A DNA stretch of 64,000 bases from Candidatus Woesebacteria bacterium GW2011_GWA1_39_21 (GTDB taxonomy: Bacteria > Patescibacteriota > Microgenomatia > UBA8517): NCBI GenBank assembly GCA_000993685.1, contig LBWP01000006.1:5356-69355 (forward strand). The letters are read 5' to 3'. Of this stretch, positions 1 through 22,605 are shown in pieces. Position 1 is the stretch's first letter, and each line of letters opens with the position of its first letter. The translations under genes and the position numbers were made by a program. The notes under the pieces were generated by a model that worked only from the letters and a program-made list of their open reading frames with translations, was not told the origin of the DNA and did no database searches.

Positions 1-1605
1 TTTGAAAAATATGACTTGTGGTTTGAAAGTTTAACCCCTCCTTTTTCATTTTCATTGCTTCCGATTTTGACGAAAAAACCGGTTGTGGCAATCGTGCACA
101 TGCTTTCAGGAAAAGATATGAGAAGAAAGTATCATCTACCCTTCGATGTGGTTCAAAATTTTGGTTTGAAGCTTTACAGGCATTTTATAGTTTTATCAAA
201 GAAATCAAGAGCTGACATATTGAAGGTTAATAAAACTGCCGATATTCGAGTTATTCCAAACGGTGTTGATATCCCCAAGAAAGTAGATATGAAAAAAGAA
301 AACACAATCATTTTTATCGGGAGAATTGAAATTAATCAAAAAGGGCTTGACCTTTTACTGCATGCGTGGAAAAAGGCAGAATTAAAAATAGATGCAAAAC
401 TGGTAATTGCGGGTTCAGGACAAAATGGCGAAGTTGAAAAACTTAAAAAGTTGATCAATGATTTGAAGCTAAATAAAAGTGTTAAATATGTTGGGAGGGT
501 AGAAAATAGAAGTAAGGACGCTCTCTTTAGAAAATCACTTTTTGTCGTTTCTCCCTCAAGATTTGAAACATTTGGGGTAACCGCATTAGAGGCGATGTCC
601 TATTCGCTTCCGTTTTTGTGTTTTGATATTGATGGGTACAAATGGATCCCAAAATCAAATTGTTTGAAGGTTAAGAAGTTTGACATTAAAAGTTTTTCTG
701 ACAGCATCATTAGACTTATAAGTAATGTAAATTACAGGAAAAGCCTTTCTAGTAAATCTAAAAAATTTGTTAAACAATATAAATGGTCAAACATTGTTCA
801 AAGATATCAAGATTATATCAACGGACTATTTAATAAGAATATTTATGACTCAAATAAAATTATCGATACAATTATTAAGAACAAGCGAAGATGTGTTTTT
901 GTCTCTCCACATTTTGATGATGCCGCTTTATCCGCTGGAGGATTTTTGACGAAGATCTCCGAAAATAAAAAGGTTGTTGTGATTAATGTTTTTACAAAGG
1001 GTAATTCTGGACCATACACACTTAGTGCAAGTAAATTTTTGCAACTTTCTGATGTGTACGATGCAAACTATTTGTATGAAAAGAGAGCGATTGAGGATCA
1101 GAAAGCTTTGAAGAAGAAGAATATTCAAATTATTAATCTAGGATTTGTTGACGCAACGTTCAGGACAATTAACACGAATATTTTTCGAAAAACAGTTGGT
1201 AAGATTATTCCTGAGATGAATTATGTTTACCCGATTTATCGATTAAATGTTTTACATGGAAAAATATCTATCAACGATAAGGTGCTGTTGGAAAATCTAG
1301 CAGTTCGGCTGTCCAAAATCATCAAAAATGATGACATTGTCTTTGCACCACTTGGGATTGGAGGACATGTTGACCACAGGATTGTTAACCAGATTGTAAG
1401 AAAACTCAAAAATACGAAAGTTTTTTGGCGAGATTTTCCCTACAGTTCTTATGTCTCAGAAGAAATTATTGGCAACAAAAGAGTTCTGATATATAACGGG
1501 GAGCAAAAAAGTAGAGAATTAATGATAAGAAAATATGTTACCCAAGTAAATAGTATGTTTCCAAGTGGTGAGATAGAGCTCACACCTGAAGTTTATTGTT
1601 TTTAA
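1..1605 (+). CDS. 5'-truncated (runs off window start) bifunctional protein: GT4-type glycosyltransferase domain fused to a C-terminal PIG-L/LmbE-family N-acetylglucosaminyl deacetylase
   Basis: Frame is open from nt 1, with no start codon in the window. N-terminal half has GT1/GT4 C-domain motifs (FIGRIEINQKGLDLLL, EXFG: FETFGVTALEAM). C-terminal half has PIG-L/LmbE motifs (VSPHFDDAALSAGG and GGHVDHRIV). Confidence 0.7.
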   Translation, partial: FEKYDLWFESLTPPFSFSLLPILTKKPVVAIVHMLSGKDMRRKYHLPFDVVQNFGLKLYRHFIVLSKKSRADILKVNKTADIRVIPNGVDIPKKVDMKKENTIIFIGRIEINQKGLDLLLHAWKKAELKIDAKLVIAGSGQNGEVEKLKKLINDLKLNKSVKYVGRVENRSKDALFRKSLFVVSPSRFETFGVTALEAMSYSLPFLCFDIDGYKWIPKSNCLKVKKFDIKSFSDSIIRLISNVNYRKSLSSKSKKFVKQYKWSNIVQRYQDYINGLFNKNIYDSNKIIDTIIKNKRRCVFVSPHFDDAALSAGGFLTKISENKKVVVINVFTKGNSGPYTLSASKFLQLSDVYDANYLYEKRAIEDQKALKKKNIQIINLGFVDATFRTINTNIFRKTVGKIIPEMNYVYPIYRLNVLHGKISINDKVLLENLAVRLSKIIKNDDIVFAPLGIGGHVDHRIVNQIVRKLKNTKVFWRDFPYSSYVSEEIIGNKRVLIYNGEQKSRELMIRKYVTQVNSMFPSGEIELTPEVYCF

Positions 1606-1614
1606 GATTGAAAT

Positions 1615-2193
1615 ATGAAATACAAGGAATTTGTCGGTAAATTTGTTTCATCCCTAAACCTAGTTAAGAGGGATTTGGTTTTATTATTTACAGGTCCAAT
1701 TGAGTATATATATACATTTACGATCTCTAACTCTGTAAAGGTTAAAATTGAACCCCATAACAATTCCACCGAAAAAGTTGGGTTTTATATCATAAACAAA
1801 TTAAAGAGTCTTAAGACAAAAATTTATTTGAAACAAATTGGTTCGACAGTTTTAAAAATTCCAGGTAATAACGACGTAGATTTTATTGCTTATCCTTATG
1901 ATGGTAACTTACACAACATTATTCCCAACATTACTAAGATTTTTGGATCACCTAAAAAAGTTAAAAAAGAATTTGTTCAGTGGGAATTCAAAATCAAAGA
2001 AGTTGAGTGTGCGTTACTTTTAGCTAAGAGAGGATGTAGATTATATAAACGAATCTCGGAAGATCAAATGCTACTACAAAGTAACCAGAATAACGTTCAT
2101 AAATATGTGAAGATGAAATTGGCCTCAGACGGTGTTTCGTTGAGGGAATATGAGAGAAGAAAAATATATTTTTTTTATCAACTTAGAAAGTAG
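1615..2193 (+). CDS. hypothetical protein
   Basis: 192-aa ORF in the intergenic slot between glycosylation genes; no motif recognised. Confidence 0.3.
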   Translation: MKYKEFVGKFVSSLNLVKRDLVLLFTGPIEYIYTFTISNSVKVKIEPHNNSTEKVGFYIINKLKSLKTKIYLKQIGSTVLKIPGNNDVDFIAYPYDGNLHNIIPNITKIFGSPKKVKKEFVQWEFKIKEVECALLLAKRGCRLYKRISEDQMLLQSNQNNVHKYVKMKLASDGVSLREYERRKIYFFYQLRK

Positions 2194-2198
2194 TTTAT

Positions 2199-3662
2199 AT
2201 GTCAAATCGATCCAACATCATAAAAATCAATGTATTGTTAATGGTGACATTTATAATTACGACTGTAGTATTGGGCATAATTGTAAAGGGCGTGGCGGGA
2301 AACCTGTCTGCAAACGATGTTTACAATCTTCAAGCGAGGACACAGCCTTTTGAGTTATCTCCGGAACGGGGTCGTTTTGCGATAGTACAATCGCTTTTCG
2401 AATATCGGCGATTAGATTTTCCAAAAGAAGTTGCTAGGTATGTGATTCCTGACCTGGCCTACCGGGACGGTAAATTTGTTACACTGTTTCCACCAGGTGT
2501 GTCTTTTATTTCCTCACCACTTTACTATCTTGGAAAACAGTTTAATTACTCACAGTATTTTTCTTTTCTTACCGTTTCGATATTTGCCATCATCAACGTA
2601 TTTTTAATTTTCAAAATTGTGGCTTTGTTAACCTCTAACAAATATGCTGGGATTCTGGCAGGTTTAATATTTTTATTTTCAACAACAGCTCTTCCTTATG
2701 CTATAACACTGTACCAGCACCATTTTACAACGTTTTTTATTTTGTTGTCTTTGTTTTTATTTCTGAAAAAAAAATCGATAACCAGTTTGCTACTTAGCTA
2801 TTTTAAATTTATAGATATAAAGGTTGGAAAGAAGATAATTGTAAAGCTCAGTTACTCAATCTTTGTTGCTTTTTTGGCGTTTGTTGTGGGGATAATTCCA
2901 AATCTTGCCTTTAGTAAATATGTTTATGGAAATATGTTTCAGCTTGCAGGTACAGTTCGGGGTGTCAAAAATGTGCAGGTTCTTGAACCCGACATTGAAG
3001 CGGCACGCTCAAACAGCGAGCAGGCTGTAGATTCGAATAAATCCTTATCAAATTTTTTTCAAATGTCCAATGTTGCTAACGGATTTCAGGTCTTGATTGC
3101 TTCATCGGAGAGGGGATTTGTTTTTTATGCACCGGTTATGTTGTTGTCAATTTTCGTAATTTTTGTTTTTTCTAAATCAAGTGATGATAACAAAAAGACG
3201 ATTCGATTAGTATTTGTTGTTCAGTTATTAATTTTAATTTTGTACTTAATGTGGGGTGACCCATGGGGCGGTTGGGCATTTGGACCAAGGTACCTTATTC
3301 CCCTTTTTTCCTGTAACTCGATTCTATTAGGGGTTGTTTTGAATAAATATGGGAAAAACCTATTAATGTTGGCTCTATTTTCTGTTTTATTCATTTACGG
3401 CCTAGCTGTTAATACCGCCGGGGCATTGACAACAAACGCCCTGGCCCCTTCAAAGGAGGTCGAATCAGCATCACTTCCAAAAGTTCAGTACATGTTTAAT
3501 TTTCAGATGATAAGTGACAACCATTCATCTTCCTTTGTTTACAACAACCTATTAAATCAATATTTTGATTTGAAGACATTCTTTTTTCTTATCATTTCCG
3601 TTGTTAGCGTTTTGTATCTAATTAACTTGATTTTATTGTATAGGAGTGAATATGAAAATTAG
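2199..3662 (+). CDS. GT-C fold membrane glycosyltransferase, ArnT/PMT-like (GT39/GT83-type)
   Basis: Multi-pass membrane protein. First-loop pattern ERGRFAIV...YRDGKFVTLFPPGVSF..YYLG resembles the ArnT/PMT DE-x-R-Y-A ... KPPLxYW arrangement. Confidence 0.55.
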   Translation: MSNRSNIIKINVLLMVTFIITTVVLGIIVKGVAGNLSANDVYNLQARTQPFELSPERGRFAIVQSLFEYRRLDFPKEVARYVIPDLAYRDGKFVTLFPPGVSFISSPLYYLGKQFNYSQYFSFLTVSIFAIINVFLIFKIVALLTSNKYAGILAGLIFLFSTTALPYAITLYQHHFTTFFILLSLFLFLKKKSITSLLLSYFKFIDIKVGKKIIVKLSYSIFVAFLAFVVGIIPNLAFSKYVYGNMFQLAGTVRGVKNVQVLEPDIEAARSNSEQAVDSNKSLSNFFQMSNVANGFQVLIASSERGFVFYAPVMLLSIFVIFVFSKSSDDNKKTIRLVFVVQLLILILYLMWGDPWGGWAFGPRYLIPLFSCNSILLGVVLNKYGKNLLMLALFSVLFIYGLAVNTAGALTTNALAPSKEVESASLPKVQYMFNFQMISDNHSSSFVYNNLLNQYFDLKTFFFLIISVVSVLYLINLILLYRSEYEN

Positions 3663-6357
3663 TTTTAAAAAGGAAGGTCTAAACATCGAACTGCCAAACT
3701 TTGCAAAAGTGGCTCCACAACTTGAAAAAAGTGCCGGAATTATTCTAATTGGCACACTAATTCTTTTGAGTCTTTTGGCTTTCGCCTATTTCTATTCAAA
3801 GGATTTAATTCTTTCATACAACGATTCTCGGGCTCACATGGATATGGCGCGACTAATTATCGACAACTTAAAACCTGGGTTTGCTCAACTTGGTGGAGTT
3901 TGGCTTCCGCTGCCACACCTTCTTATGCTTCCACTAGTTTGGAATGACTGGATGTGGCAAACAGGCCTTGCCGGGTCGGTATTTTCGATGTTTTTTTATG
4001 TCGTGTCCGGTATATATGTATCCAAATTATTGGCATTTGTTGTTAAGGATAAATTTTCTGTTGTTATTTGTACACTACTTTTTGCTTTAAATGTGAATTT
4101 GCTATATATGCAGTCGACACCGATGACGGAACTTACTTTACTTTCATTCTCTATTGCCGCTACTTATTATTTGTTGCGTTGGGTTCAAAGTGACAAACTC
4201 ACAGATTTCCTACTTCTTAGTCTGGCAGTTCTTTTGGCGACGTTAGTCAGATATGACGGATGGATGTTGTTTTTATTGACTGCTTTGAGTATCTTTATCA
4301 TTCGTCTACGAAAGGTATTAATTTCTTTAAAGGAAAAGCCTTTTTTTGTAAAAGTTAGAATTGCGTTAACTAACAGTAGTTTATGGGGTATTTTGTTAAT
4401 GTATGGACTTTTGGCTGGTTTGGGAATTGCTCTATGGGTTTTATGGAACTGGGCGATTTTTAAAGATCCTCTGTTTTTTTTAACTGGACCGTATTCTGCG
4501 AAAGCTCAACAAGCGGTGATTAGTGGGGCGGGAAAACTTTTTACAGAAGGAAACATTTTACTTTCCGTCTCCGCTTACTGGTGGGCAATGGCCGATAATG
4601 TAGGTTTGTTTGTTTTTTTATCCGCACTGATAGGTTTTTTAATTGCAATTAAAGAGGATAAATTTAACGATACATTTGTTGTACTACTGACACTTCTTGC
4701 ACCGATTTTCTTCCACATATCATCTCTTTATGGTGGTAATTCAGTGCTTGTACTTCCTGAATTGAAAATTAATGTTACAGAAGGACTTAAAGGAACATTA
4801 TTTAATGCGCGATACGGTTTAATGATTTTGCCAGCTGTTTCAGTATTTACCGCGTATTTAATCAAAAAGGGAAATTTTATTAGGTGGCTGGTTTTAGTTC
4901 TTATTCTCTTTAGCTATCTGATGATGGCAAAGGAGGCGTATGTGATTGACTTGATCGATGGGCAAATGGGGTCAAGTTCGCTAAGGGTTGGTGATGTAAG
5001 CACCTGGCTAAAAGAAAATGCACCCGGCAAAGGTCTGATACTTACCGCACTTTCATACAATAACGCACTTGCATTTAGTACGGGTTTTGATTTAAAAAGA
5101 TTTATTCACGAGGGCACAGGAAAATACTGGCAATCTGCTTTGGAAAATCCACAGGAGTATTCGCAGTGGATTGTTATGGCCAATGGTGACGTCGGAGATC
5201 CTGTTTACAACGCTTTAATAAAAAACAACCATTCAAACTTTCTAAAATATTACGATCTTTCGCAAAAATTTGATTTTTTGAATGTATATAAAAGAAAAGA
5301 AGTCCCGAAAAACTTTGTCTACATCCATGACGAACAGTTTAAGGTTGACGATGCAAACCTTAGATTTATTGGGGTAAATTCTTACGATTTGATTTACCGT
5401 TCAACAGGTGAGATAGCCTCCACACTTTCATCTGCAAAAGCCAGTGGATTTGAAGTTGTTCGTCTCTGGGTTTTTGGCGAAGGTGACTTTAATGTGCTGC
5501 AACCAAAGCCGGGAGAATACAATGAAGCCTTGCTTGATAATCTGGATTATATCTTAGCAACGGCGGGAAAACTTAACATGAATGTTATCTTAACACTATC
5601 AAATTACTGGGAAGCTTACGGTGGTGTAAGGCAATATTTGAAATGGGTTGATTTACCTAATGACAAACCATCGGATTTGGATAGATTTTTTACCGACAGT
5701 CGTGTCAGAACGATTTACAAAAATTATGTCAATGCAATTGTACTTAGGAAAAATACTTTGACGGAGATTAACTATAGAGACGACCCAACCATTATGACGT
5801 GGGAACTTATGAATGAACCAAGAAGTTCATCGTTATCTACAGCGAACGTTGTCAACGATTGGTTTTCCGAAATGACAAGCCATATCAAATCTTTGGATAA
5901 ATATCACATCGTAACGACCGGGATAGAAGGACATTTTGACAACTTGTCCATAAATCCATACACAACGGGTCCGACAATAAATGATGTAAGTAATAATGTA
6001 AGTATTGATGTGTTGTCAGGGCATTTGTATTTGGACTATTTTGATCCATCAGTTAGTGCAAATAACTTCTCGATTGTTAACCTTTGGACAGCATTTGCAA
6101 AAAATGCAGGTATGCCGTTCTTTATTGAGGAAGTTGGTTTTTCAAAAAAACCTGATGATAATGGTGGAATTGATCGATATACTCTTTATGAAAACTTATT
6201 GGAGTCAGCAAGAAAAAACAATCTTCAGGGTTTAATTCTTTGGAATTGGGCTTTAAAGACTGATGACAGTTTTGGAATTTCGCCGCTTGATCCTGGTGAT
6301 GCGGAACTGATTCAGCTTTTCAAATCCTATTCTGAAAGGCTGAAAAACGATGTATAA
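3646..6357 (+). CDS. fusion protein: N-terminal ArnT/PMT-like GT-C membrane domain plus C-terminal glycoside hydrolase family 5 (mannanase/cellulase-like) domain
   Basis: N-terminal ~480 aa are polytopic with DSRAHMDMARLI...GGVWLPLPHLL (GT-C loop-1-like). C-terminal ~400 aa carry the GH5 acid/base motif WELMNEPR, a candidate nucleophile in FFIEEVGF, and the SGHLY motif. Confidence 0.7.
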   Translation: MNMKISFKKEGLNIELPNFAKVAPQLEKSAGIILIGTLILLSLLAFAYFYSKDLILSYNDSRAHMDMARLIIDNLKPGFAQLGGVWLPLPHLLMLPLVWNDWMWQTGLAGSVFSMFFYVVSGIYVSKLLAFVVKDKFSVVICTLLFALNVNLLYMQSTPMTELTLLSFSIAATYYLLRWVQSDKLTDFLLLSLAVLLATLVRYDGWMLFLLTALSIFIIRLRKVLISLKEKPFFVKVRIALTNSSLWGILLMYGLLAGLGIALWVLWNWAIFKDPLFFLTGPYSAKAQQAVISGAGKLFTEGNILLSVSAYWWAMADNVGLFVFLSALIGFLIAIKEDKFNDTFVVLLTLLAPIFFHISSLYGGNSVLVLPELKINVTEGLKGTLFNARYGLMILPAVSVFTAYLIKKGNFIRWLVLVLILFSYLMMAKEAYVIDLIDGQMGSSSLRVGDVSTWLKENAPGKGLILTALSYNNALAFSTGFDLKRFIHEGTGKYWQSALENPQEYSQWIVMANGDVGDPVYNALIKNNHSNFLKYYDLSQKFDFLNVYKRKEVPKNFVYIHDEQFKVDDANLRFIGVNSYDLIYRSTGEIASTLSSAKASGFEVVRLWVFGEGDFNVLQPKPGEYNEALLDNLDYILATAGKLNMNVILTLSNYWEAYGGVRQYLKWVDLPNDKPSDLDRFFTDSRVRTIYKNYVNAIVLRKNTLTEINYRDDPTIMTWELMNEPRSSSLSTANVVNDWFSEMTSHIKSLDKYHIVTTGIEGHFDNLSINPYTTGPTINDVSNNVSIDVLSGHLYLDYFDPSVSANNFSIVNLWTAFAKNAGMPFFIEEVGFSKKPDDNGGIDRYTLYENLLESARKNNLQGLILWNWALKTDDSFGISPLDPGDAELIQLFKSYSERLKNDV

Positions 6358-6368
6358 TATTTATCCAA

Positions 6369-7205
6369 ATGAAAGTTTCTCTCGTTGTCACGGTTCTTAA
6401 TGAGGAACCTTCTATTGCAGCACTTCTCGAATCGCTTATTTCCCAAACAAGGCAACCGGATGAGATCGTCATTGTCGACGGAGGGTCAAACGACAAAACA
6501 GTTAATATTATTAAAAGTTATCAGAAAGTCATTAAAGGCCTGAAACTTTTGGAGTTCAAAACGACACGATCTGAGGCGAGAAATATCGGAATCCGCTCTT
6601 CAAGCGGTGATGTAATTGTCACGACCGACGCCGGATGTGTTGCGGAAAAACACTGGATTAAAAAAATCACCCAGCCTTTTACTGATTCGAAAATTGCAGC
6701 CAGATCTTTGGCTTTCCGCAAAATTTTGTGGGAAAAAGTTGGTGGGTTTCCAGAGGGGCTAAAAGACACAGCTGAAGATACGATGTTTAATTACAATATC
6801 ATAAAGGCAGGTGCAAAAATTGCCCGTGTAAAAGATGCCATTGTTTATTGGCAACTCCCTCTAACTTTGATCGAAGGCTTTAAAAAAATATTTTTGTATG
6901 CAAAGGGCGATGCACGCTCGGGAATTTGGTGGCATCCGACGAAAAAATTTTCGACGCATAACATCAAAATTGCCTTTATTTACCTGCGTTACATTTTCGC
7001 CCTCTACTTTATTTTATTTATTCCCCTTTTCCCCGTTTTGAAACTGCCTTTCGTTTTGGGAGTGGTCTTTTACATGTTCTGGGCGTTTAAAAAAGTTTAC
7101 ACGCGGACAAATGACTGTTTAGCAGGTCTGTCTGGAGTTGTTGTCCAGTTTGCTTCCGATATCGCCGTAATGTGTGGCTTTTTGTCAGGATTGATTACTA
7201 TATAG
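6369..7205 (+). CDS. family 2 glycosyltransferase with C-terminal transmembrane segment
   Basis: N-terminus VSLVVTVLNEE...DEIVIVDGGSNDKT is a typical GT2 start; C-terminus is hydrophobic. Confidence 0.65.
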   Translation: MKVSLVVTVLNEEPSIAALLESLISQTRQPDEIVIVDGGSNDKTVNIIKSYQKVIKGLKLLEFKTTRSEARNIGIRSSSGDVIVTTDAGCVAEKHWIKKITQPFTDSKIAARSLAFRKILWEKVGGFPEGLKDTAEDTMFNYNIIKAGAKIARVKDAIVYWQLPLTLIEGFKKIFLYAKGDARSGIWWHPTKKFSTHNIKIAFIYLRYIFALYFILFIPLFPVLKLPFVLGVVFYMFWAFKKVYTRTNDCLAGLSGVVVQFASDIAVMCGFLSGLITI

Positions 7206-7920
7206 ATCTTTTGAATCTTTGGTAAACTCCAAACAAGTACCAGTAAATATATTTAGGTAGCCATTTCATTAGCTTAAATTTCGATTTACCGTATTTTCTG
7301 TCGACCCAAAATGTTGGGACCTCTGTGACTTTAAATCCGGCAAAATATCCTTTGATCAAAAGCTCCTCCGCAAATTCAAAACCACCCCTCGATTCGATTT
7401 TAATACTTTTCAAAATTTCTTTTTTAAACATTTTATAAGAATAGGTCAGATCCGATGTAGGAATTCCAAGAAGATATGGTGTTGTTATTCCTGATAGCCG
7501 TGAAAGGACAGATTTAAGTGTGACTTTGGAAACAATTCGTCCGCCCTTGGAATATCTGGTTGGGCAAACGATATCGTAACCTTGTTCAATTTTTTCATAC
7601 ATCGAGTTTAAAGTTTTAGGGTCGTCTGTTCGGTCGGCAGCCATCATTACTAAAATTTCTCCGCGAGCGGTGTTGAAACCTTTCAGGGTTGCGTTGACTA
7701 CACCTTTTCCAAAATCGTTACGAACCAAACGGATGTTTCTGTGCCTTGAAACTAGTTTGCGTGCAACCGGTAAGGTGTTGTCCTTTTCATCATCATAGAC
7801 AATAATTAATTCAAATTTTGGCCGAACGACCTTACGGATTTTATCAACTGTCCAAGCAAGATTTTTCCTTTCATTTTTGACTGGTAGGATAATACTAATT
7901 TCTGGTTTTTGTTGATACAT
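7198..7920 (-). CDS. GT2 polyprenol-phosphate sugar synthase (DPM1/GtrB-like dolichyl/undecaprenyl-phosphate mannosyl- or glucosyl-transferase)
   Basis: ISIILPVKNERKNL...ELIIVYDDEKDNT...AADRTDDP matches the DPM1/GtrB GT2 pattern. Soluble, 240 aa. Confidence 0.75.
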   Translation of the reverse strand: MYQQKPEISIILPVKNERKNLAWTVDKIRKVVRPKFELIIVYDDEKDNTLPVARKLVSRHRNIRLVRNDFGKGVVNATLKGFNTARGEILVMMAADRTDDPKTLNSMYEKIEQGYDIVCPTRYSKGGRIVSKVTLKSVLSRLSGITTPYLLGIPTSDLTYSYKMFKKEILKSIKIESRGGFEFAEELLIKGYFAGFKVTEVPTFWVDRKYGKSKFKLMKWLPKYIYWYLFGVYQRFKRSI

Positions 7921-8012
7921 GGATACCTGTTAGTCTAACGCAAGTATTTGTGAAAAAAAAGAATACCATTTTTGTTTTGATGAAATAATCAAATTGTGTT
8001 ATACAAATAAAG

Positions 8013-8660: not shown

Positions 8661-8700
8661 AGAAAATGCTATATAATAATCTGCTTTCTGCCCTTTAATA

Positions 8701-9666: not shown

Positions 9667-9671
9667 GGTGA

Positions 9672-14407: not shown

Positions 14408-14789
14408 AGTTAGCTCAAGAAAAAAAATATTTTGGTTACTTTTTGGAATTTGGGTGTTTGTATTTTTAGTTGTTGACGCCTTTCGGGTTTTTAAAAAGAC
14501 TGTTTCAAAAATATACGAGGGAAATATACAAAAAGTCCAAAGTATGAGTGTGGATGAATTGTCAGCTTTGGCAAAAAGCAGAATTAAAAAGGGAAACTCT
14601 GTAGTTTTTCTTTCCGACGACGGCCTGGCGTACATGTATTTCAATCTGCTTTCCTATCCTCTGGTTGCGAAGTGGAGCACTGATTACACAGCCGTTGAAT
14701 TAAGGGATTGGGATTATCTTGTCGTTTATGACACGGTTAATATGTTTCAACTAAGAAGCGGACTATACTCGAAAAATGATTTTAATTAA
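14400..14789 (+). CDS. hypothetical membrane-anchored protein
   Basis: N-terminal TM helix; tightly packed in the operon; no motif. Confidence 0.3.
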   Translation: MSKVSSRKKIFWLLFGIWVFVFLVVDAFRVFKKTVSKIYEGNIQKVQSMSVDELSALAKSRIKKGNSVVFLSDDGLAYMYFNLLSYPLVAKWSTDYTAVELRDWDYLVVYDTVNMFQLRSGLYSKNDFN

Positions 14790-16122
14790 ATTTGTCATTG
14801 CCATAATTTTTACCTTCTTTGCCGGTGCTTGCGTATTCAGGTTATTTATGAAGGACAAAAGTGTTTCCGGACTTTTGTTTATCGCCACTTCTTTTTTCAT
14901 CGGCATGTCGGCAATTTCATTTCAGATGCAGCTTTATTCGCTTGTTGGGATACAATTTAGCGCTTTAAAATTGGGTCTACCATGGCTTATATTTCTACCA
15001 CTTTTCTTGAAAGAGAAGTATCTTTTTAAAGTTAAAATCAACTTGCGCAAAGTAGATAGTCCGCTTCTTTTGTTTTTTCTTTTGATAACTGTCTTTCAAC
15101 TCTCGCTGATTTTTTTGCGATTTTTTTTGCACAGAAATGCAATCGGATGGGACGGAATAAGCATTTGGTATTACAAAGCAAACGCTTTTTTTGTTGATAA
15201 AACAATTGATTTTAGCATTTTTACGAACCCGCTATTGGGCCAAGAAGGTTTAACCGATACATATATCCGTTCAAGTTACCCGCTTTTTCTGCCGTTATAT
15301 TTGGCGTTTATCTTTTTGACGATCGGAAAGTTCAGCATTTTTTTCGGAAACATAATTTGGATATTATGCTATCTCTTACTTTTAGTTGTCCTTTACAAAT
15401 TTTTGCTGCGCCGTTTTAATTTTTCTTTTGCTGTTCTTGGAATTTTTTTGTTAGTTTCGCTTCCCGCCAATTTTGATCATTTGGCGGGAAAATACGCCGG
15501 CTACGCCGATTTAATTCTAATGTGTTTTGCAACGACGGGTGTTATTTTTTTTCTGGAAGGGATTTTTCGTAAAAAACTGTATTATCTTTCAATCAGCCTA
15601 CTTTTGGCTTCTGCCGCTGCAAATATTAAGGAGGACGGAATGGTATTTTTGGCAGCGATAGCGATAATGTTTACCCTAACCTCTTTTGCAAAAAGAAAGT
15701 TTACAAACTTAAAATATTTAGCAGTTCCGCTTTTGATTGTTTCCCCCTGGTATGTTATTCGGGACATCTTGCGTTTCCCTTCTCTTCTCGACGCATCGAG
15801 CGGGGTGCATTTTGACAGGTTGGCGACAATTGTTGTTGTAATATTTCAACAATTTTTTGATGTTGGAAATTTTCTTTTTTTGTTCCCCCTGTTTCTGCTT
15901 ACGCTTGTCTTTTCCTACAGGGTTATTTTTAAACAATATTATGTCTATCTACTTGTTGTGATTGGCATGGTAATTGCTTGCTACGTTATAATCTTTATGT
16001 TAACACCGCTTGATCCGGTAAGGCACATCAACTCGCTTGCCGATCGGATTTTGTATACCGTTTCTCCTTTGATGATCATCTTTATCTTGCAAACCTTTTG
16101 GAATAGCTATATAGAAAAATAA
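14776..16122 (+). CDS. polytopic integral membrane protein of unknown function (glycan polymerase/transferase candidate)
   Basis: 448 aa, >10 predicted TM helices, embedded in the glycosylation operon. Confidence 0.4.
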   Translation: MILIKFVIAIIFTFFAGACVFRLFMKDKSVSGLLFIATSFFIGMSAISFQMQLYSLVGIQFSALKLGLPWLIFLPLFLKEKYLFKVKINLRKVDSPLLLFFLLITVFQLSLIFLRFFLHRNAIGWDGISIWYYKANAFFVDKTIDFSIFTNPLLGQEGLTDTYIRSSYPLFLPLYLAFIFLTIGKFSIFFGNIIWILCYLLLLVVLYKFLLRRFNFSFAVLGIFLLVSLPANFDHLAGKYAGYADLILMCFATTGVIFFLEGIFRKKLYYLSISLLLASAAANIKEDGMVFLAAIAIMFTLTSFAKRKFTNLKYLAVPLLIVSPWYVIRDILRFPSLLDASSGVHFDRLATIVVVIFQQFFDVGNFLFLFPLFLLTLVFSYRVIFKQYYVYLLVVIGMVIACYVIIFMLTPLDPVRHINSLADRILYTVSPLMIIFILQTFWNSYIEK

Positions 16123-16126
16123 CGAT

Positions 16127-18370
16127 ATGAAAAAACCTGATCTCTCGATAATATATGTTAACTACAATAGTCTGACCGATCTTTCACAATCAATTAGGTC
16201 ATTAATAAAATACGGATTTAAAAAGAATTTGGAAATTATCGTCGTTGATAATGGTCACTCTAAAGAAATCAAAAAAATTCTTTCGCAATTCCACACTAAG
16301 GTAAAGTTAATTAGAAGCAAAATTAATGGCGGCTATGGGGCCGGAAATAATCTAGGTGCGCTCATCTCAGTTGGAAAATACTTGCTATTTCTTAATCCCG
16401 ACACCGAAATGAAAAAGGGGAGTATTGACGTGCTTTATAACTTTTTAGAAAAAAACGACGACGTTGCAATTGTTGCACCAAACCTTGTTGATACAAGGGG
16501 AATTGTCTTTAAACAACTTGGCTCACGAAAGTTGACACCACTAAGAGGAATATTTTCATTATCGATTATCAACAGACTCTTTTCCGGTAACCCAATTGCG
16601 AAAAATTACAACCTCCTGGACAAAGATTTTAACAAAGTCCGTGAAGCAGACGTTGTCCCCGGTTCCGCGTTTATGATAAGAGCCTCGGTCTTTAAAAAAG
16701 TCGGCGGCTTTGATAAGCGGTTTTTTATGTACTTTGAGGAGTCGGATCTTTGTCTTCGCGTCAAACAGTTGGGGTACAAAATTGTTATCATACCGACTTC
16801 CGAAATTGTCCACAAGTGGAGTGACAGACAAAATAAAAAATTAAAAAAATATTTTTACAAAAGCCGTTTTTATTATTTTAAGAAACACTTCGGAGTGGTT
16901 GCCGCTTCGTTTGTCGAATTCATCTGCCGCTTAACCAAATATGATTTGGTATTCATCTTAATTTTCGCACTGGGCGCGTATCTGAGGTTTTATATGTCTA
17001 ACAAACTTTTTTATCTTGATTCGGAGGTTGCCGATAATTTGCTAGACATAAAAAACGCCTATTTAAGTAATAGCATCCCATTAATCGGTCCGCCAACTTC
17101 TCATCCTTGGTTGAACTTTGGTCCACTTTTCTATTGGATATATGGCCCTATTTTGATTTTTTTTAAGTTTAATCCGGCAACCCACATGTACTTTGGGCTG
17201 CTTGTTAGCTGTCTTGCAATTTTCTTGAACTACTTTGTTGTAAAACGCTTTTGGGGTTCTAAAATCGCAGTTTTGTCATCGCTGATTATTTCACTATCAC
17301 CGTTTTTATTGGGGTATGCATACCTTGGTAGATTTTATACATACACAGTAACTTTTTCATATCTAACACTATTTCTGCTTTTAAAGTTTTTAGATACGAA
17401 AAAAGGTCTTTTCTGGCTTTTTTTCAGTGTTGGATTGCTTTTGAACTTTCATTATTCGACACTTGTTTTGGCTCCAGCGATTCTTTTGCTTATTACTCTG
17501 CGTAAGATTAAGCTCTCGTTTAAGGATTTATTTATCTTACTCATTGCTGTCTTGTTGCCGCTCTCCCCACTTTTTATATATGATGCTCAAAATCATTTTG
17601 TCATGTTACAAAAATTGTTTTTATGGTTTCCATATCGGGTTTTGAGTGTTTTTTGGGTAATTAATGCGGGAAATGTTCCACAAGACGCGTTAGTTTCCGG
17701 ATACCAAATGTTTTTCGGATTTGTCGGAAATCTTTTGTCTTTTGAAGACGTTAAAACACTCCACATTTTGGCAGCATTGACTGTCTTTACGCTGTTACTT
17801 TTTACACTGATTAAATTCACGAAACTGGGAAAATATTCGCAAAACCTTATAATTATCTCCGGAAGTTCTTTGTTCTTACTGACTTTACACGGCGAGACAC
17901 CTAATCATTACTTTCTCTTTATCTCTCCATTTATTTTAATTTTGATAACGGTTGCACTAGTTAGACTTTTTCCGCGGAGAATATCGCTCTTTCTTCTACT
18001 TTTGATTTGTTCAGTGTTATTTTTTAACATCGTACTTTATCTCAAATTGAGGCAGAACAAAGTGATAACGACCTATTTTCAACAAAAACAAGTAGCAACG
18101 TTTTTGGTTAATGACAGTAACTCAAAAGCAATCTGGCTAAGAAGAATCGGTGAAAACGACCAGTTTGATGGAGATTTCGCGCAAAATTATGATTATCTTT
18201 TGTGGATGTTTGGAAACGAACCGGTAAGGTTGGGTAATCTGACCAATAGTCAAAAAAATCCACAAGTTGAATATATAATAGTGGAAGATAAGTCGTTTGA
18301 AGACAAAGCCTTTGTATCGATGCAAAAGTATTCAGTGTCAGGTGTAACAATTTTAAAAAAGAATTTATGA
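16127..18370 (+). CDS. fusion protein: N-terminal GT2 glycosyltransferase domain plus C-terminal ArnT/PMT-like GT-C membrane domain
   Basis: N-terminus LSIIYVNYNS...IIVVDNGHSKE...NPDTE (GT2 DXD). C-terminal polytopic domain has LDSEVADNLLDIKNAY...GPPTSHPWLNFGPLFYW, the ArnT/PMT loop-1 pattern. Confidence 0.65.
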   Translation: MKKPDLSIIYVNYNSLTDLSQSIRSLIKYGFKKNLEIIVVDNGHSKEIKKILSQFHTKVKLIRSKINGGYGAGNNLGALISVGKYLLFLNPDTEMKKGSIDVLYNFLEKNDDVAIVAPNLVDTRGIVFKQLGSRKLTPLRGIFSLSIINRLFSGNPIAKNYNLLDKDFNKVREADVVPGSAFMIRASVFKKVGGFDKRFFMYFEESDLCLRVKQLGYKIVIIPTSEIVHKWSDRQNKKLKKYFYKSRFYYFKKHFGVVAASFVEFICRLTKYDLVFILIFALGAYLRFYMSNKLFYLDSEVADNLLDIKNAYLSNSIPLIGPPTSHPWLNFGPLFYWIYGPILIFFKFNPATHMYFGLLVSCLAIFLNYFVVKRFWGSKIAVLSSLIISLSPFLLGYAYLGRFYTYTVTFSYLTLFLLLKFLDTKKGLFWLFFSVGLLLNFHYSTLVLAPAILLLITLRKIKLSFKDLFILLIAVLLPLSPLFIYDAQNHFVMLQKLFLWFPYRVLSVFWVINAGNVPQDALVSGYQMFFGFVGNLLSFEDVKTLHILAALTVFTLLLFTLIKFTKLGKYSQNLIIISGSSLFLLTLHGETPNHYFLFISPFILILITVALVRLFPRRISLFLLLLICSVLFFNIVLYLKLRQNKVITTYFQQKQVATFLVNDSNSKAIWLRRIGENDQFDGDFAQNYDYLLWMFGNEPVRLGNLTNSQKNPQVEYIIVEDKSFEDKAFVSMQKYSVSGVTILKKNL

Positions 18371-19143
18371 GCAAAATCAGTGTCGTAATTTTAACCCACA
18401 ATTCGGGGAGTGTGATTGGACCGCTCTACCAATCGCTTAAAGAGTTTGATGAGGTCCTTGCTATTGATGATAACTCCTGCGATCAGACAGAAAATATTTG
18501 TAAGCGTTTAGGTATCAGATATTTCAATCACACCCTCAACGGCGACTTTTCCGCACAAAGAAATTTCGCTCTAACAAAATGTAGCTACGACTGGGTGTTT
18601 TACATTGATAGTGACGAGACGGTTAATGAGAATTTTGTGGACGAGATTAAAAGGTTAGCCGGTAACAACAATTTTGCAGGCTATTATGTTACGCGAAAAG
18701 TTAATTTTTTAAATCATGTCATGATTGCTACGGAAATGGGAAATGACAAGTTGGTTCGCGTTGGTTTAAAAAATTCTGGTAAGTGGGTTCGGCGCGTGCA
18801 TGAAGTTTGGAAGATTAACGGAAATCTGGGTGAAATTAACACGCCGCTTATTCATAATACTGCACTTACGCTTCACAAATTTATCGAAAAGCTAAACTGT
18901 TATTTCAGGCTTCATGCACAAGAAAATCTAAACGCAGGGAAAAGTGTCAGCTTTTCTAAAATATTATTTTTTTCGCTTGGAAAATTTTTTAAAAATTATA
19001 TATTTCTTCGTGGATATCGTGATGGTACGCATGGCTTCGTCGCAAGTGTTCTCATGTCGCTTCATACATTTCTTTCCTGGTCGTACGCTTGGCTTCAAGG
19101 AAATATTCAGAAAGGTAACAGGGGTGATAAACTTTCAGTGTAG
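18367..19143 (+). CDS. family 2 glycosyltransferase
   Basis: ISVVILTHNSG...LAIDDNSCDQT...YIDSDE. Confidence 0.7.
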   Translation: MSKISVVILTHNSGSVIGPLYQSLKEFDEVLAIDDNSCDQTENICKRLGIRYFNHTLNGDFSAQRNFALTKCSYDWVFYIDSDETVNENFVDEIKRLAGNNNFAGYYVTRKVNFLNHVMIATEMGNDKLVRVGLKNSGKWVRRVHEVWKINGNLGEINTPLIHNTALTLHKFIEKLNCYFRLHAQENLNAGKSVSFSKILFFSLGKFFKNYIFLRGYRDGTHGFVASVLMSLHTFLSWSYAWLQGNIQKGNRGDKLSV

Positions 19144-19147
19144 TAGT

Positions 19148-20647
19148 ATGCCGCAAATTGTGGAGTTTTTAAAAAAACATTGGTTTTTGCTCTTATCCTT
19201 TTTATATTTTTTGACAAGGCTGTTTAATTTATTAACCTTGCCAATTTTTAACGATGAAGCCATATATATCGATTGGGCAAATAAAATGCGTTTTGGGTAT
19301 GTACCAACTTTCTATTCACTTTATGACGGTAAACCCCCCCTCCACTTTATTTTGATTTCACAAGCGTTAAAGGTCTTTGCTAACCCCTTGTTGGCGGGCA
19401 GGCTAGTCAGCGTTTTTATCGGATTTTCCACGTTAATTGTTTTGAAAAAAATCTCAGAAGCTGTTTTTGACAAGAGAGAAGGCGTCTTTTTGGTGTGTGT
19501 TTTTTACATTCTTTCCCCAATTTATACATTTTTTGATCGGCAAGCATTGCAAGAGCCGGTCTTAACAACATTTCTTTTATGGAGCTTCTATTTTTTAATA
19601 AAGTATTCGCAAAAATTTAGAGTAAAAGACATCATCTTTTCGGCTTTGTTTTTAAACCTGGCCTTTTTTACAAAAGCATCAGCAGCATATTTGCTTGGAC
19701 CAATTTGTTTATATTTTATCTACAAATTTTTTGTTGATCCAAAAAATAGAAATAATATATTCCTTTCAGCGGTGTGTTATTTTTGTGTCTTTATTTGCTT
19801 ATTGGCACCTCTTATGCTTCAAGAGCAAGCACATCTGATTTTTACACGTAACGACCGCTATCTGCTTAGTCTGAATTTGCCACCAGCGGTGTTTCTAAAA
19901 ATTTTGATAGACAATCTTGTCAAAAGCTTCCATCTTTTCCTTTGGTATTTTAATGTTTACCTTTTATTTTTTGTTATTTCATTGGTAAGTTTCTTGCGGA
20001 AGGTAAGATCGAGTGAATTAAAAATCTTTTTTTTGTTTATGTTGCCGCTGATTATTATGATCTTTACTTCCAAAGAAATTAACGACAGATACATTGCCCC
20101 ATTTTCAATATTTTTGATATTTATTTGTGCGGCGGGATTTACGGCGGTCAATAACAGTCTGAGGATTTTCTTCTATTTCACCCTGATTGTTCCGGCATTA
20201 ATTACTTTTTTTCAAATCATAAACATCAACAGTTACATATCTTTGCTAAACAAAAGTTATCCCCACCTGGGGCTATCAATTTATCAGAATGGGTTTACAT
20301 CCGGATATGGCGTAACTCACGCAATAACTTATCTTCAAAGTCTTGAGAGTAGTCACCGGAAGCTGTACCTTGGCGTTCGCGTCGATGCCGGCAATCCCGA
20401 AAGTGCTGTCATGGCATATTTTCTCAAGGACAAAAAAGCAACGGTTGTGCCAATGTATTTTGATGCACGGTTAATCAAACTTCCACTTCCGGATGATTTT
20501 GTTGGTAACATCTACCCATTCTATTTTATCTCGAGAGATGATAATTTAGCCGGAATGGATAAATATTTGACACTTGTGAAAAAGTTTTTCAAACCTGATG
20601 GAGTATCGTTTGTCGGAATCTATAAATATCAAAAATCCAAAAGTTAA
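19148..20647 (+). CDS. ArnT/PMT-like GT-C membrane glycosyltransferase (GT39/GT83-type)
   Basis: LPIFNDEAIYIDWANKM...DGKPPLHFIL matches the DE-x-x-Y-A ... KPPL loop-1 signature. I take the ATG at 19148, just after the stop of the upstream GT2, rather than the overlapping track ORF start at 18944. Confidence 0.65.
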   Translation: MPQIVEFLKKHWFLLLSFLYFLTRLFNLLTLPIFNDEAIYIDWANKMRFGYVPTFYSLYDGKPPLHFILISQALKVFANPLLAGRLVSVFIGFSTLIVLKKISEAVFDKREGVFLVCVFYILSPIYTFFDRQALQEPVLTTFLLWSFYFLIKYSQKFRVKDIIFSALFLNLAFFTKASAAYLLGPICLYFIYKFFVDPKNRNNIFLSAVCYFCVFICLLAPLMLQEQAHLIFTRNDRYLLSLNLPPAVFLKILIDNLVKSFHLFLWYFNVYLLFFVISLVSFLRKVRSSELKIFFLFMLPLIIMIFTSKEINDRYIAPFSIFLIFICAAGFTAVNNSLRIFFYFTLIVPALITFFQIININSYISLLNKSYPHLGLSIYQNGFTSGYGVTHAITYLQSLESSHRKLYLGVRVDAGNPESAVMAYFLKDKKATVVPMYFDARLIKLPLPDDFVGNIYPFYFISRDDNLAGMDKYLTLVKKFFKPDGVSFVGIYKYQKSKS

Positions 20648-20649
20648 CT

Positions 20650-21911
20650 ATGATACCCACAAACTTAACTATTAAAAAAGCCTATGCATATGTAATTGTC
20701 GTCGCTTTTCTTTTGCTTTTCCCCTTTGGACAACTGCTGCGGATCAACTTAACAGCACTGGGTTTTAATTTTGGAATAGTTCCTGCCGACATCCTTGCGC
20801 TTTTCTCGCTTCCGTACTTGTTCTTGAATAATGACATCCTCCCCGCCTTAAAAGGCGGGGTTTCCCCAAGGAGGATGACATATAAGCAAAGCTTAACTCT
20901 GTTTGCACATTTTCAGAGTTCAATTCATCTTATCTAAAAAGAATCATCTTTTTCTTTATTGCAAGTTGGGTTTTTTCATTGATTGTTTTTCGAACCACGG
21001 CAATCGTTTACGGTTTAATGTATTTAATCCGGCTGGTATCGTATATCTCGTTTGCATTTCTTGTCAACTATCTATGCGCTTCTGAAAGGATTAAAAAAAA
21101 TATTTTGAACCTGACCTTGGTTGTGCTTGGTTTTTTTATGCTTCTTGGAGCATGTCAGTTTATTTTTTATTATGATTTGCGTGATTTATACTTTAGCGGT
21201 TGGGACGACCACTACTATCGATTTGTCTCAACAACCCTAGATCCGGGTTACGCTGCAGTTGTTTTAAATATCGGGCTGGTTTTGGTTTTAGCAAAAAATC
21301 TTATTAAATCACGATACGTAAAGATACTTTTCACAGTTTTATTTGTTACCGCAGTCATCCTGACTTTTTCCCGAGCAGGGTATCTGACTCTTTTGGCGCT
21401 TCTTTTGTACAGATTTAAAAAACACTTTAAAAAAATTCTCTTGGTAGCCGTCGTCGTTGTTATATTTTTACTGATAGTTCCGAAACCGAGGAGTGCGGGT
21501 GTCGAGTTGTTAAGAACGTTTAGTATCAGCTCAAGAGTTGATGATTACAAAAAAACCGCAGAAATATTCTTTAAACACCCTCTTTTCGGCGTTGGATATA
21601 ATAATTTGTGTTTATTCCGCGTGATTAATGGTGAAAACAATATCGCTTCGCATTCCTGTTCGGGAAGTGACTCGTCACTTCTGACGATTTTGGCAACGAC
21701 CGGCGTGGTCGGATCAATGATCTTTTTCATATCTTTTTACAAAATCATAGGGCTTTTGCCAAAAGATGAGTATGGCCACATCGTGAAGATGGTTATTATG
21801 GTCTTGCTTGTAAGTTCGCTTTTTAATAACACGCTCTTTTTCAATTTTAATATGGGGCTTTTCGCGCTATTTTTCGGACTTTCGAGGAAAACCTCTACTC
21901 TTGAAAATTAA
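20650..21911 (+). pseudogene. Wzy/WaaL-like O-antigen ligase/polymerase family gene split into 95-aa and 310-aa ORFs by a 95-nt palindromic insertion
   Basis: Both parts are polytopic. The C-terminal part has the Wzy_C-type motif FSRAGYLTLLALLL. Removing nt 20830-20924 joins the two ORFs in frame with no intervening stop. Confidence 0.55.
20830..20924 (+). mobile_element. 95-nt miniature palindromic repeat element (MITE-like), copy A, inside the Wzy-like gene
   Basis: A 57-nt block and a 37-nt block are identical to the reverse complement of 30259-30376. Contains nested hairpins (ccccgcc ttaaaa ggcgggg, flanked by atgacatcctcc / ggaggatgacat). Confidence 0.6.
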
Positions 21912-22605
21912 CCGTTAGTTGTTTTGTCGCTTCGTTACCTGCCTTGTCTTTAGCCACGAGGGTGATTGTATTTGCGCCTGGCTGCAAATTGTATTTGTAG
22001 CCGAAGGTGTCATCGTCAGAGACGAGGACGTACTTGTCATTTATTTTAAGTTCAACATCACTATCGCTTGTACCCTTAATTTCAACTAAACGATTTTTAT
22101 CTCCGTAAACTGTGGAGTTGTCTTGCGGTTGGTTCACTGTTAAATTTGGATTGTCCTTGTCTAAAACAATTTGGTACTGTTTTGTATGGACACTTTCATT
22201 TCCTGCAGAATCAGTTGAAAAAAGAAAGAAACTGTTGATGCCGCTAACAAGCTTCGCCTTAAAAATATATGACCCGTCGGAATCAGCAACCTGTTCGTAA
22301 GTGTCCCTGTTTAAAGAAAGAGTAACCGCTGATGCGGCCTCTGCAGAACCTTTAACTTCAATGTTATCCTTATTTGTGTAGTCGGGAATGTCATTAACAA
22401 GGGGAATGTTCGGAGGGATTTTATCTTCAGATTTGCTGATAGTATCGGAATTTTTTAAGTTTCCGATAAAGTTGATGACGTAAACAAGTGCTTTGGCGCC
22501 GGCAAAAAAGATTACAACCGCGGAAAAGATTGTAAAAAGCAGATAGCGAATCGATTTGTTTCGATTCGACTGGGTCTGTTTTTTTTGTCTAAGCGAATAA
22601 TACAT
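21895..22605 (-). CDS. membrane-anchored surface protein with tandem bacterial Ig-like domains
   Basis: N-terminal TM helix; two roughly 80-aa repeats with a beta-rich pattern (e.g. KGSAEAASAVTLSLN..., KGTSDSDVELKIN...ITLVAKDKAGNE). Confidence 0.45.
   Translation of the reverse strand: MYYSLRQKKQTQSNRNKSIRYLLFTIFSAVVIFFAGAKALVYVINFIGNLKNSDTISKSEDKIPPNIPLVNDIPDYTNKDNIEVKGSAEAASAVTLSLNRDTYEQVADSDGSYIFKAKLVSGINSFFLFSTDSAGNESVHTKQYQIVLDKDNPNLTVNQPQDNSTVYGDKNRLVEIKGTSDSDVELKINDKYVLVSDDDTFGYKYNLQPGANTITLVAKDKAGNEATKQLTVNFQE

Follow-up and report, generated by a model that had tools for sequence, protein, structure and literature searches.

We analyzed a 64,000-nucleotide stretch of contig LBWP01000006.1 (positions 5,356 to 69,355; hereafter the window) from Candidatus Woesebacteria GW2011_GWA1_39_21, a genome bin of the Candidate Phyla Radiation (CPR; Microgenomates) recovered from groundwater. 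Positions 1-22605 hold 19 genes, mainly on the plus strand and many overlapping by a few bases (Table 1), and make up most of a locus for the biosynthesis of a cell-envelope glycan. Six of these 19 genes, all within 22 kb, code for glycosyltransferases of the GT-C type, designated A to F; this is not a chance pattern. A tRNA gene (22615-22686) forms the right boundary, and past 22.6 kb housekeeping genes follow (LysM, PolX, LemA, HtpX, GatA/B, DnaE, L19 and RuvC and, further downstream, phosphomannomutase (PMM), a phosphoglucose/phosphomannose isomerase (PGI/PMI), PpsA, enolase, LexA and UvrABC). The left boundary lies beyond the window edge, so that the locus extends off this side. G+C content ranges from 32 to 42% across the window, and the locus is not set off by a compositional break. 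All open reading frames (ORFs) listed in a preliminary description of the window were found at their positions.

That description had recognized GT-C enzymes in four proteins or domains (A, B, the C-terminal part of E, and F) and named C and D as two further polytopic candidates. All six are GT-C glycosyltransferases, C by its structural model and its relatives and D by its match to the Pfam family PMT_2 (PF13231). The gathering cut-off of PMT_2, 26.1 bits, was passed by D (27.1 bits, barely), E (29.6 bits) and F (50.7 bits). In E, a GT2 domain that is not of the dolichol-phosphate-mannose (Dol-P-Man) synthase (DPMS) type occupies residues 1-260 and precedes a GT-C region at approximately residues 265-747, with the PMT_2 match at residues 333-482. 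The membrane domain of B scored 16.2 bits, under the cut-off. Among 24 sampled B homologues, 4 matched PMT_2 (best 2e-8) and 2 matched PMT (best E 3e-4), and about half of the full-length fusion relatives of B carry a precomputed PF13231 assignment. The B family is very large in CPR bacteria, with more than 2800 matches.

No Pfam match was found for either A or C. Protein A, deposited as hypothetical protein UT39_C0006G0005 (100% identity), belongs to a family of more than 900 proteins, nearly all of them without a Pfam domain; a weak, partial match to the NCBIfam model "LA_3751/LA_3752 putative glycosyltransferase" reached 41 bits against a cut-off of 200. An AlphaFold2 (AF2) model of A built from a 33-sequence alignment (pLDDT 85.5, pTM 0.88) was compared with the PDB using Foldseek, and the top 26 matches were all GT-C enzymes (E from 3e-4, TM-score approximately 0.4), among them ALG12, ArnT, STT3, DPY19, EmbA/B, Pmt4, ALG9, PglB, AftA and ALG6. 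For C (pLDDT 89.2), 25 of the 27 top matches were GT-C enzymes, including PglB/STT3, AftA, DPY19, ALG3 and ArnT, with E-values from 9e-6 (PglB) and TM-scores of 0.46-0.52 for the significant matches; the exceptions were an unannotated ribosome-translocon chain at rank 18 (6ftg_5) and a subunit of the glycosylphosphatidylinositol (GPI) transamidase at rank 23. A word-indexed search returned 14 relatives of C, an exhaustive profile search 2408 representatives at E <= 1e-3, and 5 of 10 distant relatives sampled pass the PMT_2 cut-off. Thus A, B and C connect to PMT_2 through their relatives alone. A distant relationship also links the profiles of A and B (hhalign probability 75%, E 2.7e-5). We conclude that three GT-C families, those of A and of B and the C lineage, are barely recognized by current domain libraries.

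Each candidate showed 8-16 hydrophobic windows, several of them overlapping, in a hydropathy scan, and both AF2 models (A and C) consist of bundled helices. Directly after the first transmembrane helix (TM1), in the first extracytoplasmic loop, acidic residues are invariant in all three families: E52 and D85 in A, D60 and D73 in B, and D39 and D59 in C. Further invariant positions are G58, R59 and the motifs YQHH and WGDPWGGWAFGxRY in the A family (where E56 is at least 90% conserved), N59, H64 and R69 in the B family, and YPP in the C family. Acidic loop-1 motifs were also seen in D (WDG), E (LDSE) and F (NDE), each from a single sequence. The C-terminal soluble domain of C (residues ~390-516) has near-invariant C393 and C503 and a consensus with several further Cys motifs; its sequence is compatible with an extracytoplasmic disulfide-bonded domain.

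Comparison of the six candidates with one another by BLASTP revealed no significant paralogy, a result of excessive divergence that makes profiles and structures necessary. Searches of the PDB by sequence or profile with F (E up to 1), the A family and the C family returned no useful match, and none of the window proteins matched PMT (PF02366), MIR or PMT_4TMC in Pfam. Membership in GT39 or GT83 was not demonstrable, as PMT and MIR domains are lacking and the PDB offers no match at the level of sequence. The label "ArnT/PMT-type" used in the preliminary description therefore applies loosely, at the level of the Pfam PMT_2/GT-C clan, but not in the strict sense; ArnT itself appeared solely as one among many fold-level matches of A and C. 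Two other identities were rejected. The assignment of C to GT87/DUF2029, a guess from its Y-x-D-F...Y-P-P motif, was unsupported by any search, and its relatives link to PMT_2. The polytopic proteins did not resolve into transporter families either, as transporter structures ranked below the GT-C matches (TM-score approximately 0.1).

Table 1. Genes and domains of the envelope glycan locus, and the giant proteins of related loci
Feature	Position	Strand	Evidence or remark
GT4 + PIG-L de-N-acetylase fusion	1-1605	+	Pfam Glycos_transf_1 1.4e-30, PIG-L 2.8e-15; 5' end cut by window edge
192-aa protein, function unassigned	1615-2193	+	No Pfam/NCBIfam match; homologues in 10 related loci
GT-C A, Pfam-less family	2199-3662	+	AF2 and Foldseek
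GT-C B, membrane domain, divergent PMT_2-like	3646-5394	+	PMT_2/PMT matches of relatives
B, C-terminal GH5 endo-beta-1,4-mannanase domain (predicted)	5395-6357	+	Pfam Cellulase (PF00150) 2.5e-14; PDB mannanases
GT2 with C-terminal transmembrane helices	6369-7205	+	Pfam Glycos_transf_2 4.4e-23
DPMS/GtrB/ArnC-type GT2 without C-terminal membrane domain	7198-7920	-	PDB 5mlz 2.5e-25
S-adenosylmethionine (SAM) methyltransferase 1	8013-8660	+	Methyltransf_23 2.8e-7
GDP-mannose 3,5-epimerase homologue (predicted)	8701-9666	+	PDB 2c59 3.2e-69
GT-C C, divergent PMT_2 clan, Cys-containing C-terminal soluble domain	9672-11222	-	AF2 and Foldseek
MOP/Wzx-family flippase	11281-12495	+	Polysacc_synt_3 3.6e-62; NCBIfam MOP flippase 9e-50
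SAM methyltransferase 2	12492-13292	+	Methyltransf_11 1.2e-17
GT4 glycosyltransferase	13289-14407	+	Glycos_transf_1 8.3e-20
Small single-transmembrane-helix protein (129-aa ORF)	14400-14789	+	No family match
GT-C D (PMT_2)	14776-16122	+	PMT_2 27.1 bits, E 5.6e-6
E, Leloir GT2 + PMT_2 GT-C fusion	16127-18370	+	Glycos_transf_2 3.5e-21, PMT_2 29.6 bits
GT2 glycosyltransferase	18367-19143	+	Glycos_transf_2 1.1e-18
GT-C F (PMT_2), N-D-E motif after TM1	19148-20647	+	PMT_2 50.7 bits
Wzy_C (O-antigen ligase/polymerase-like) gene, frameshifted	20650-21911	+	Wzy_C 8.9e-15 on ORF 20979-21911
Membrane-anchored protein with two Ig-like domains	21895-22605	-	Big_13 and Glucodextran_B
Giant proteins of related loci	L001:4405-9087, L009:1089-5807, L010:221-5008, L071:1762-6465; L085:2-4441		See text

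Three of the gene products point to mannose. The C-terminal 340 residues of B form a domain of glycoside hydrolase family 5 (GH5), with the PDB matches 9m20 (6.4e-48) and tomato mannanase 1rh9 (1.1e-45), and relatives of B carry the Pfam domain GH5_mannosidase (PF26410). The WELMNEP sequence of B aligned with the acid/base motif of mannanases. R606, N723, E724, Y795, E829 and W866 do not vary among 25 GT-C::GH5 fusion proteins, and H793 hardly does; because of this conservation of catalytic residues, the GH5 domain looks catalytically competent. The product of 8701-9666, previously described as a short-chain dehydrogenase/reductase (SDR) epimerase, does belong to this superfamily and can be placed more exactly as a predicted GDP-mannose 3,5-epimerase homologue: it matched the structure 2c59 of this enzyme at 3.2e-69 over residues 5-319, the next SDR family following at 2.8e-29. 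The soluble GT2 encoded at 7198-7920 had been called DPM1/GtrB-like, and indeed its best PDB match was Dol-P-Man synthase of P. furiosus (5mlz, 2.5e-25, residues 2-234), followed by GtrB (6.7e-14) and ArnC (4.7e-11). The DPMS-like GT2, the epimerase homologue and the GH5 mannanase domain are, by their predicted functions, three independent links to mannose.

Approximately 20 kb downstream of the locus, at 43199-45709, adjacent genes code for a phosphoglucomutase/phosphomannomutase and a bifunctional PGI/PMI-type isomerase, and these could supply mannose phosphates to the locus. A phosphoglucomutase/phosphomannomutase gene also lies near the A and B homologues in one related locus (L003).

Besides the DPMS-like enzyme, "three more" GT2 and GT4 enzymes had been reported; both classes are present, but the actual set of Leloir glycosyltransferases comprises three GT2 (6369, 18367 and the N-terminal domain of E) and two GT4 (16-1605 and 13289). 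The two SAM methyltransferases and the Wzx-like flippase were found as described. The protein earlier called Wzy/WaaL-like contains a Wzy_C ligase-type domain, although its gene in fact runs from 20650 to 21911 and is frameshifted in this assembly; it has no PDB relative and shows a weak match to an NCBIfam putative O-glycosylation ligase (7e-8), and polymerase and ligase are not distinguishable for it. This frameshift, the GH5 domain of B, the GT4-PIG-L fusion and the identity of the epimerase were absent from the preliminary description.

Four segments missing from the window are present in independent assemblies of the same groundwater project (L085, L086, L088 and L089), which are otherwise 99.9-100% identical to it. 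Relative to P0002, an A homologue 95% identical to the window protein, and L085, the gene for A lacks 75 nt (at ~2804), which removes 25 residues after residue 202, including one predicted transmembrane helix; a low-confidence patch of the AF2 model (residues 194-203) sits on the deletion junction. The GT2 gene starting at 6369 lacks 111 nt (at 6696), an in-frame loss of 37 residues of the catalytic domain, so that its product has 278 aa compared with 315 aa in L004, L085 and L089. In the Wzy_C gene, 55 missing nt (at ~20929) cause the frameshift, leaving a 95-aa N-terminal ORF (20650-20937) and a second ORF (20979-21911); the gene is intact in L088 and L089 (a 438-aa ORF in the latter). The fourth gap, 82 nt at 26638, lies outside the locus and touches the start of the PolX gene. 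The gaps are not accounted for by Ns or by flanking repeats and are either strain variants or assembly errors. The 55-nt segment (L089:14804-14852) holds a perfect G+C-rich hairpin, CCCCACCC-TGAA-GGGTGGGG, followed by TTTT; it is terminator-like though located inside the 438-aa Wzy_C frame of the sibling assemblies.

To place the locus in a comparative context, the A family served as a probe, with P0002 standing in for the window protein in contig look-ups. Relatives of A were found in 334 species-representative genomes, and the informatively named hosts are Microgenomates and other CPR lineages. Many metagenome-assembled genomes with both A and B, deposited as Third Party Annotation records, are titled "uncultured Gammaproteobacteria", "Pseudomonadales" or "Methylomirabilota" (L007, L013, L014, L022 and others), and one relative of B is labelled "Bathyarchaeia"; such records are probably mislabelled or mis-binned. 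In 68 of the 73 species-level loci with room for it, the start of a B-family gene lies no more than a few bases from where A ends, and A is followed by B in four further loci. A-B is thus a conserved pair. Fusion to GH5 is limited to a small group of approximately 40 proteins and occurs once among these 68 pairs. Elsewhere B measures approximately 540 aa, and directly after it 46 of 49 loci have a conserved ORF of 330-430 aa, here called X (for example, L002:13098-14177 and L003:13243-14514). ORF X ends in a CarboxypepD_reg domain; no PDB match was obtained for its main domain, which contains motifs that we take to resemble a clan GH-A barrel. Comparison with the GH5 domain of B gave an hhalign probability of 8%, and 2 of 22 X proteins weakly matched Glyco_hydro_cc (E 0.012). 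ORF X could be a glycosidase that stands in for the GH5 domain of B. Following A-B(-X), a fn3 protein is encoded in 30 and a sortase in 28 of the 49 loci.

Upstream of the A-B pair, a giant protein of approximately 1570 aa has the same four-part architecture in four of five examples scanned (L001, L009, L010 and L071): an ArnC/DPMS/GtrB-like GT2 domain (9hwj, 1.3e-16), a synthase-type GT2 domain (Glyco_trans_2_3), a membrane region with a weak Polysacc_synt match, and a GT4 domain. Proteins with GT2/GT4 similarity to the giant protein of L004 lie upstream of A-B in 49 of 49 loci. In the population from which the window derives, at least 1479 aa of a giant protein precede the GT4-PIG-L gene; this copy, seen in L085, is cut at the contig start and lies just upstream of the window. 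L085 also provides the full GT4-PIG-L protein of 639 aa (gene 4383-6302). Orthologues of GT4 and PIG-L are located upstream of A in L002 and L004, and 23 of 62 loci have a PIG-L gene no more than 5 kb upstream of A. The slot of the 192-aa protein is taken by Acetyltransf_6 or by a 453-aa ORF in related loci. Since the N-terminal GT2 domain of the complete giant proteins is ArnC/DPMS/GtrB-like, the core itself carries a synthase together with GT-C enzymes.

L004, the locus of another Woesebacteria genome, begins with dTDP-rhamnose genes and is syntenic with the window for GT4/PIG-L, A, B, GT2, Wzx, methyltransferase, GT4 and the fusion protein E. Relative to L004, the window contains two insertions, one with the DPMS-like GT2, methyltransferase 1, the epimerase homologue and C (two of these genes being on the minus strand), and one with the 129-aa ORF and D. 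Most related loci contain only two GT-C enzymes of the tested families. We conclude that the giant multi-glycosyltransferase protein, GT4, PIG-L, A and B are a core conserved across Microgenomates, to which a lineage-specific layer is added: the DPMS-like GT2, one methyltransferase, the GDP-mannose 3,5-epimerase homologue and GT-C enzymes C, D and F.

The reading that we favor, with a probability of roughly 55%, is that the locus specifies an extracytoplasmic assembly line whose product is an envelope glycan with mannose among its sugars and whose donors are polyprenyl-phosphate sugars. From the gene anatomy, which is directly observed, we infer each of the following steps. In the cytoplasm, GT2 and GT4 enzymes would assemble a primer or oligosaccharide on a lipid; PIG-L would de-N-acetylate one of its sugars, and some sugars would be O-methylated. 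The MOP/Wzx protein would flip this lipid-linked material over the membrane. The DPMS-like GT2 would load a hexose onto polyprenyl phosphate, GDP-mannose being the most likely source and mannose the most likely sugar, and a polyprenyl-phosphate hexose would also be made by the N-terminal GT2 domain of the giant protein. Outside the membrane, each of the six GT-C enzymes would add one sugar or linkage from polyprenyl-phosphate sugars, while the GH5 beta-mannanase domain of B might cut or transglycosylate the nascent mannan. Finally, the Wzy_C protein may polymerize the glycan or ligate it to the final acceptor. The many GT-C enzymes and the polyprenyl-phosphate-sugar synthase-like GT2 argue for lipid-linked monosaccharide donors outside the membrane, as the preliminary description had proposed for an envelope glycosylation locus; for the use of such donors by the GT-C enzymes, it is the co-located DPMS-like GT2 that suggests it.

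Several points weigh against this assembly line. Among the window ORFs scanned (with a lower limit of 100 aa up to 26 kb and of 120 aa beyond), there was no initiating phosphoglycosyl transferase (Bac_transf or Glycos_transf_4; WbaP or WecA/MraY types), which could be encoded elsewhere in the genome, and a GtrA-type flippase is not present. The best NCBIfam matches of the DPMS-like GT2 (PgfS, ArnC and a Dol-P-hexose transferase) all fell under the curated cut-offs. This protein, with 240 aa, has no membrane domain and ends after amphipathic interface helices, a build presumably resembling that of soluble human DPM1 and of the catalytic domain of Ppm1. An outward-facing GH5 domain is predicted from the architecture of GT-C enzymes. 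Finally, if the deletions in A, the GT2 starting at 6369 and the Wzy_C gene are taken literally, these three genes may be defective.

An unlikely alternative is that the locus serves protein O-glycosylation: PMT_2 enzymes would O-mannosylate secreted or sortase-anchored proteins from polyprenyl-phosphate-mannose, like actinobacterial Pmt/Ppm1, and/or Wzy_C would act as an O-oligosaccharyltransferase of the PglL/WsaB type, transferring a flipped oligosaccharide to proteins. The PMT_2 matches, the weak match of Wzy_C to a putative O-glycosylation ligase and the frequency of fn3 and sortase genes after A-B(-X) in related loci are consistent with it. In the window, however, neither a PMT or MIR domain nor a sortase or fn3 gene was detected, and a beta-mannanase domain with six different GT-C enzymes suits the building of a polymer better than modification with single sugars. 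An Ig-like membrane protein does adjoin the locus, as previously described, and had been suggested as the acceptor. Its gene, however, is on the opposite strand, convergent with the locus and next to the boundary tRNA; it is not conserved with the module, having no homologue in 80 related loci, and the protein lacks a Ser/Thr-rich region or linker. We therefore rejected the Ig-like protein as an unsupported member of the system, and found no specific evidence for the protein O-glycosylation put forward with it.

Somewhat less expected is a membrane-anchored lipoglycan, made by GT4 addition of N-acetylglucosamine (GlcNAc) to a lipid, de-N-acetylation by PIG-L, flipping, and extension of a mannan by the GT-C enzymes from polyprenyl-phosphate-mannose, in parallel to PIG-A/PIG-L/PIG-M/DPM1 of eukaryotes and PimA/PimB/PimE/MptA/Ppm1 of mycobacteria. 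The fusion of GT4 to PIG-L here and the PIG-L genes upstream of A in other loci speak for it, as do the DPMS-like GT2, the multiple GT-C enzymes and the lack of a polyprenyl-diphosphate-priming transferase among the scanned ORFs of the window. On the other hand, PIG-L enzymes also act on soluble substrates (mycothiol and bacillithiol) and on other glycans, the NCBIfam matches (BshA, MshA and GlcN-PG synthase) are all sub-threshold, and PIG-L is missing from most related loci. A glycan of this kind, anchored by a glucosamine (GlcN) lipid, is an attractive sub-variant of the assembly line favored above.

With equally little confidence, the conserved core may be extended to a broader proposal: A-B, the giant GT2-GT2-TM-GT4 protein and an extracellular glycosidase (GH5 fused to B in some Woesebacteria, ORF X elsewhere) might be an undescribed, near-universal Microgenomates machine. 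In it, the two Pfam-poor GT-C enzymes A and B would form a hetero-complex, likened to Pmt1-Pmt2 or EmbA-EmbB, and would polymerize a GlcN-lipid-anchored mannan, lipomannan- or GPI-like, as the main envelope polymer of these episymbiotic bacteria. Least probable is that the region is no single pathway but a glycan "island": beside the conserved A-B core, several decoration modules would have gathered that are independent of one another and serve different polymers. The two blocks inserted relative to L004, the first with its two minus-strand genes, and the small number of GT-C enzymes in most related loci would fit, but gene packing is tight with frequent overlaps, and in function the inserted genes go together with the mannanase domain of B.

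Outside the locus, a homologue of the NAGPA-type phosphodiester glycosidase (39139-39903, minus strand; Pfam 9e-10) is possibly another enzyme related to envelope glycans. Two ORFs amid the housekeeping genes (42046-42513 and 59088-59489) gave matches to phage families, namely a putative metallopeptidase domain and holin superfamily IV, and a holin-family gene was also seen near the A-B pair in L003.

CPR genomes measure approximately 1 Mb, and CPR bacteria presumably live in attachment to other cells, yet the chemistry of their cell surface has hardly been described. The six GT-C genes amount to approximately 9 kb, near 1% of such a genome, hence their product must matter to the cell. The extracytoplasmic assembly line predicts a polyprenyl-phosphate-mannose donor, a methylated glycan that is a beta-mannan or contains L-galactose, and an active mannanase tethered to a transferase. 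The A-B pair could mark envelope glycan loci across Microgenomates, and the locus, an annotation-level finding in a public genome, may provide a handle on the CPR cell surface. Full-text literature searches, including those for Patescibacteria/CPR with GT-C or related enzymes, returned no description of such a locus.

Four known systems resemble the locus in part. The likeness to the eukaryotic GPI-anchor core (PIG-A, PIG-L, DPM1 and PIG-M/V/B) lies in the GT4, PIG-L, Dol-P-Man synthase-like GT2 and GT-C classes; it is a resemblance of enzyme classes only, with no transamidase or ethanolamine-phosphate transferase here. The lipomannan-lipoarabinomannan pathway of mycobacteria and corynebacteria (PimA/PimB GT4, Ppm1, PimE, MptA-D and Emb/Aft) shares the cytoplasmic GT4 steps, a DPM1-like polyprenyl-phosphate-mannose synthase and several different GT-C enzymes; those of the pathway each form one linkage outside the membrane and are a precedent for mannan-building GT-C enzymes (PMC2157549, PMC3123699). 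The CPR bacterium studied here presumably has no mycolate envelope. In contrast to that pathway, whose genes are scattered, the genes here are clustered and include PIG-L, methyltransferases, a GDP-mannose epimerase homologue and a beta-mannanase domain, and beyond the fold there is no detectable sequence relationship of the GT87/MptA type.

The rhamnose-rich, dual-chain wall polysaccharide of Lactococcus and Streptococcus also requires a GtrB-like synthase for the primer or a side chain, Wzx- and Wzy-like proteins and outer-face GT-C enzymes (PMC10821137, PMC11754754), and the dTDP-rhamnose genes at the start of the syntenic L004 locus add to this likeness. The window, in which neither an ABC exporter nor rhamnan genes were seen, differs by far more GT-C enzymes and by a mannose rather than a rhamnose signature.

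The combination of a polyprenyl-phosphate-sugar synthase, a flippase and a GT-C enzyme has its precedent in three-component systems, some of whose GT-C enzymes bear C-terminal extracytoplasmic carbohydrate-active domains (PMC11127046, PMC5836110). In these systems (GtrB, CsbB or GacI as synthase, a flippase, and GtrC, YfhO, GacL or GT136), as in the window, a DPMS/GtrB/ArnC-type GT2, a flippase (here of the MOP family, with no GtrA-type protein) and GT-C enzymes are encoded together. Here, however, there are six GT-C enzymes instead of one, the synthase has no membrane helices, and what is attached to one GT-C enzyme is not a binding module but a catalytic GH5 domain. Whereas three-component systems decorate an existing polymer, the GT-C enzymes of the window may build one. 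The locus is thus a known kind of system, whose most original features are three under-annotated GT-C lineages, the A-B pair and the fusion of a GT-C enzyme to a beta-mannanase.

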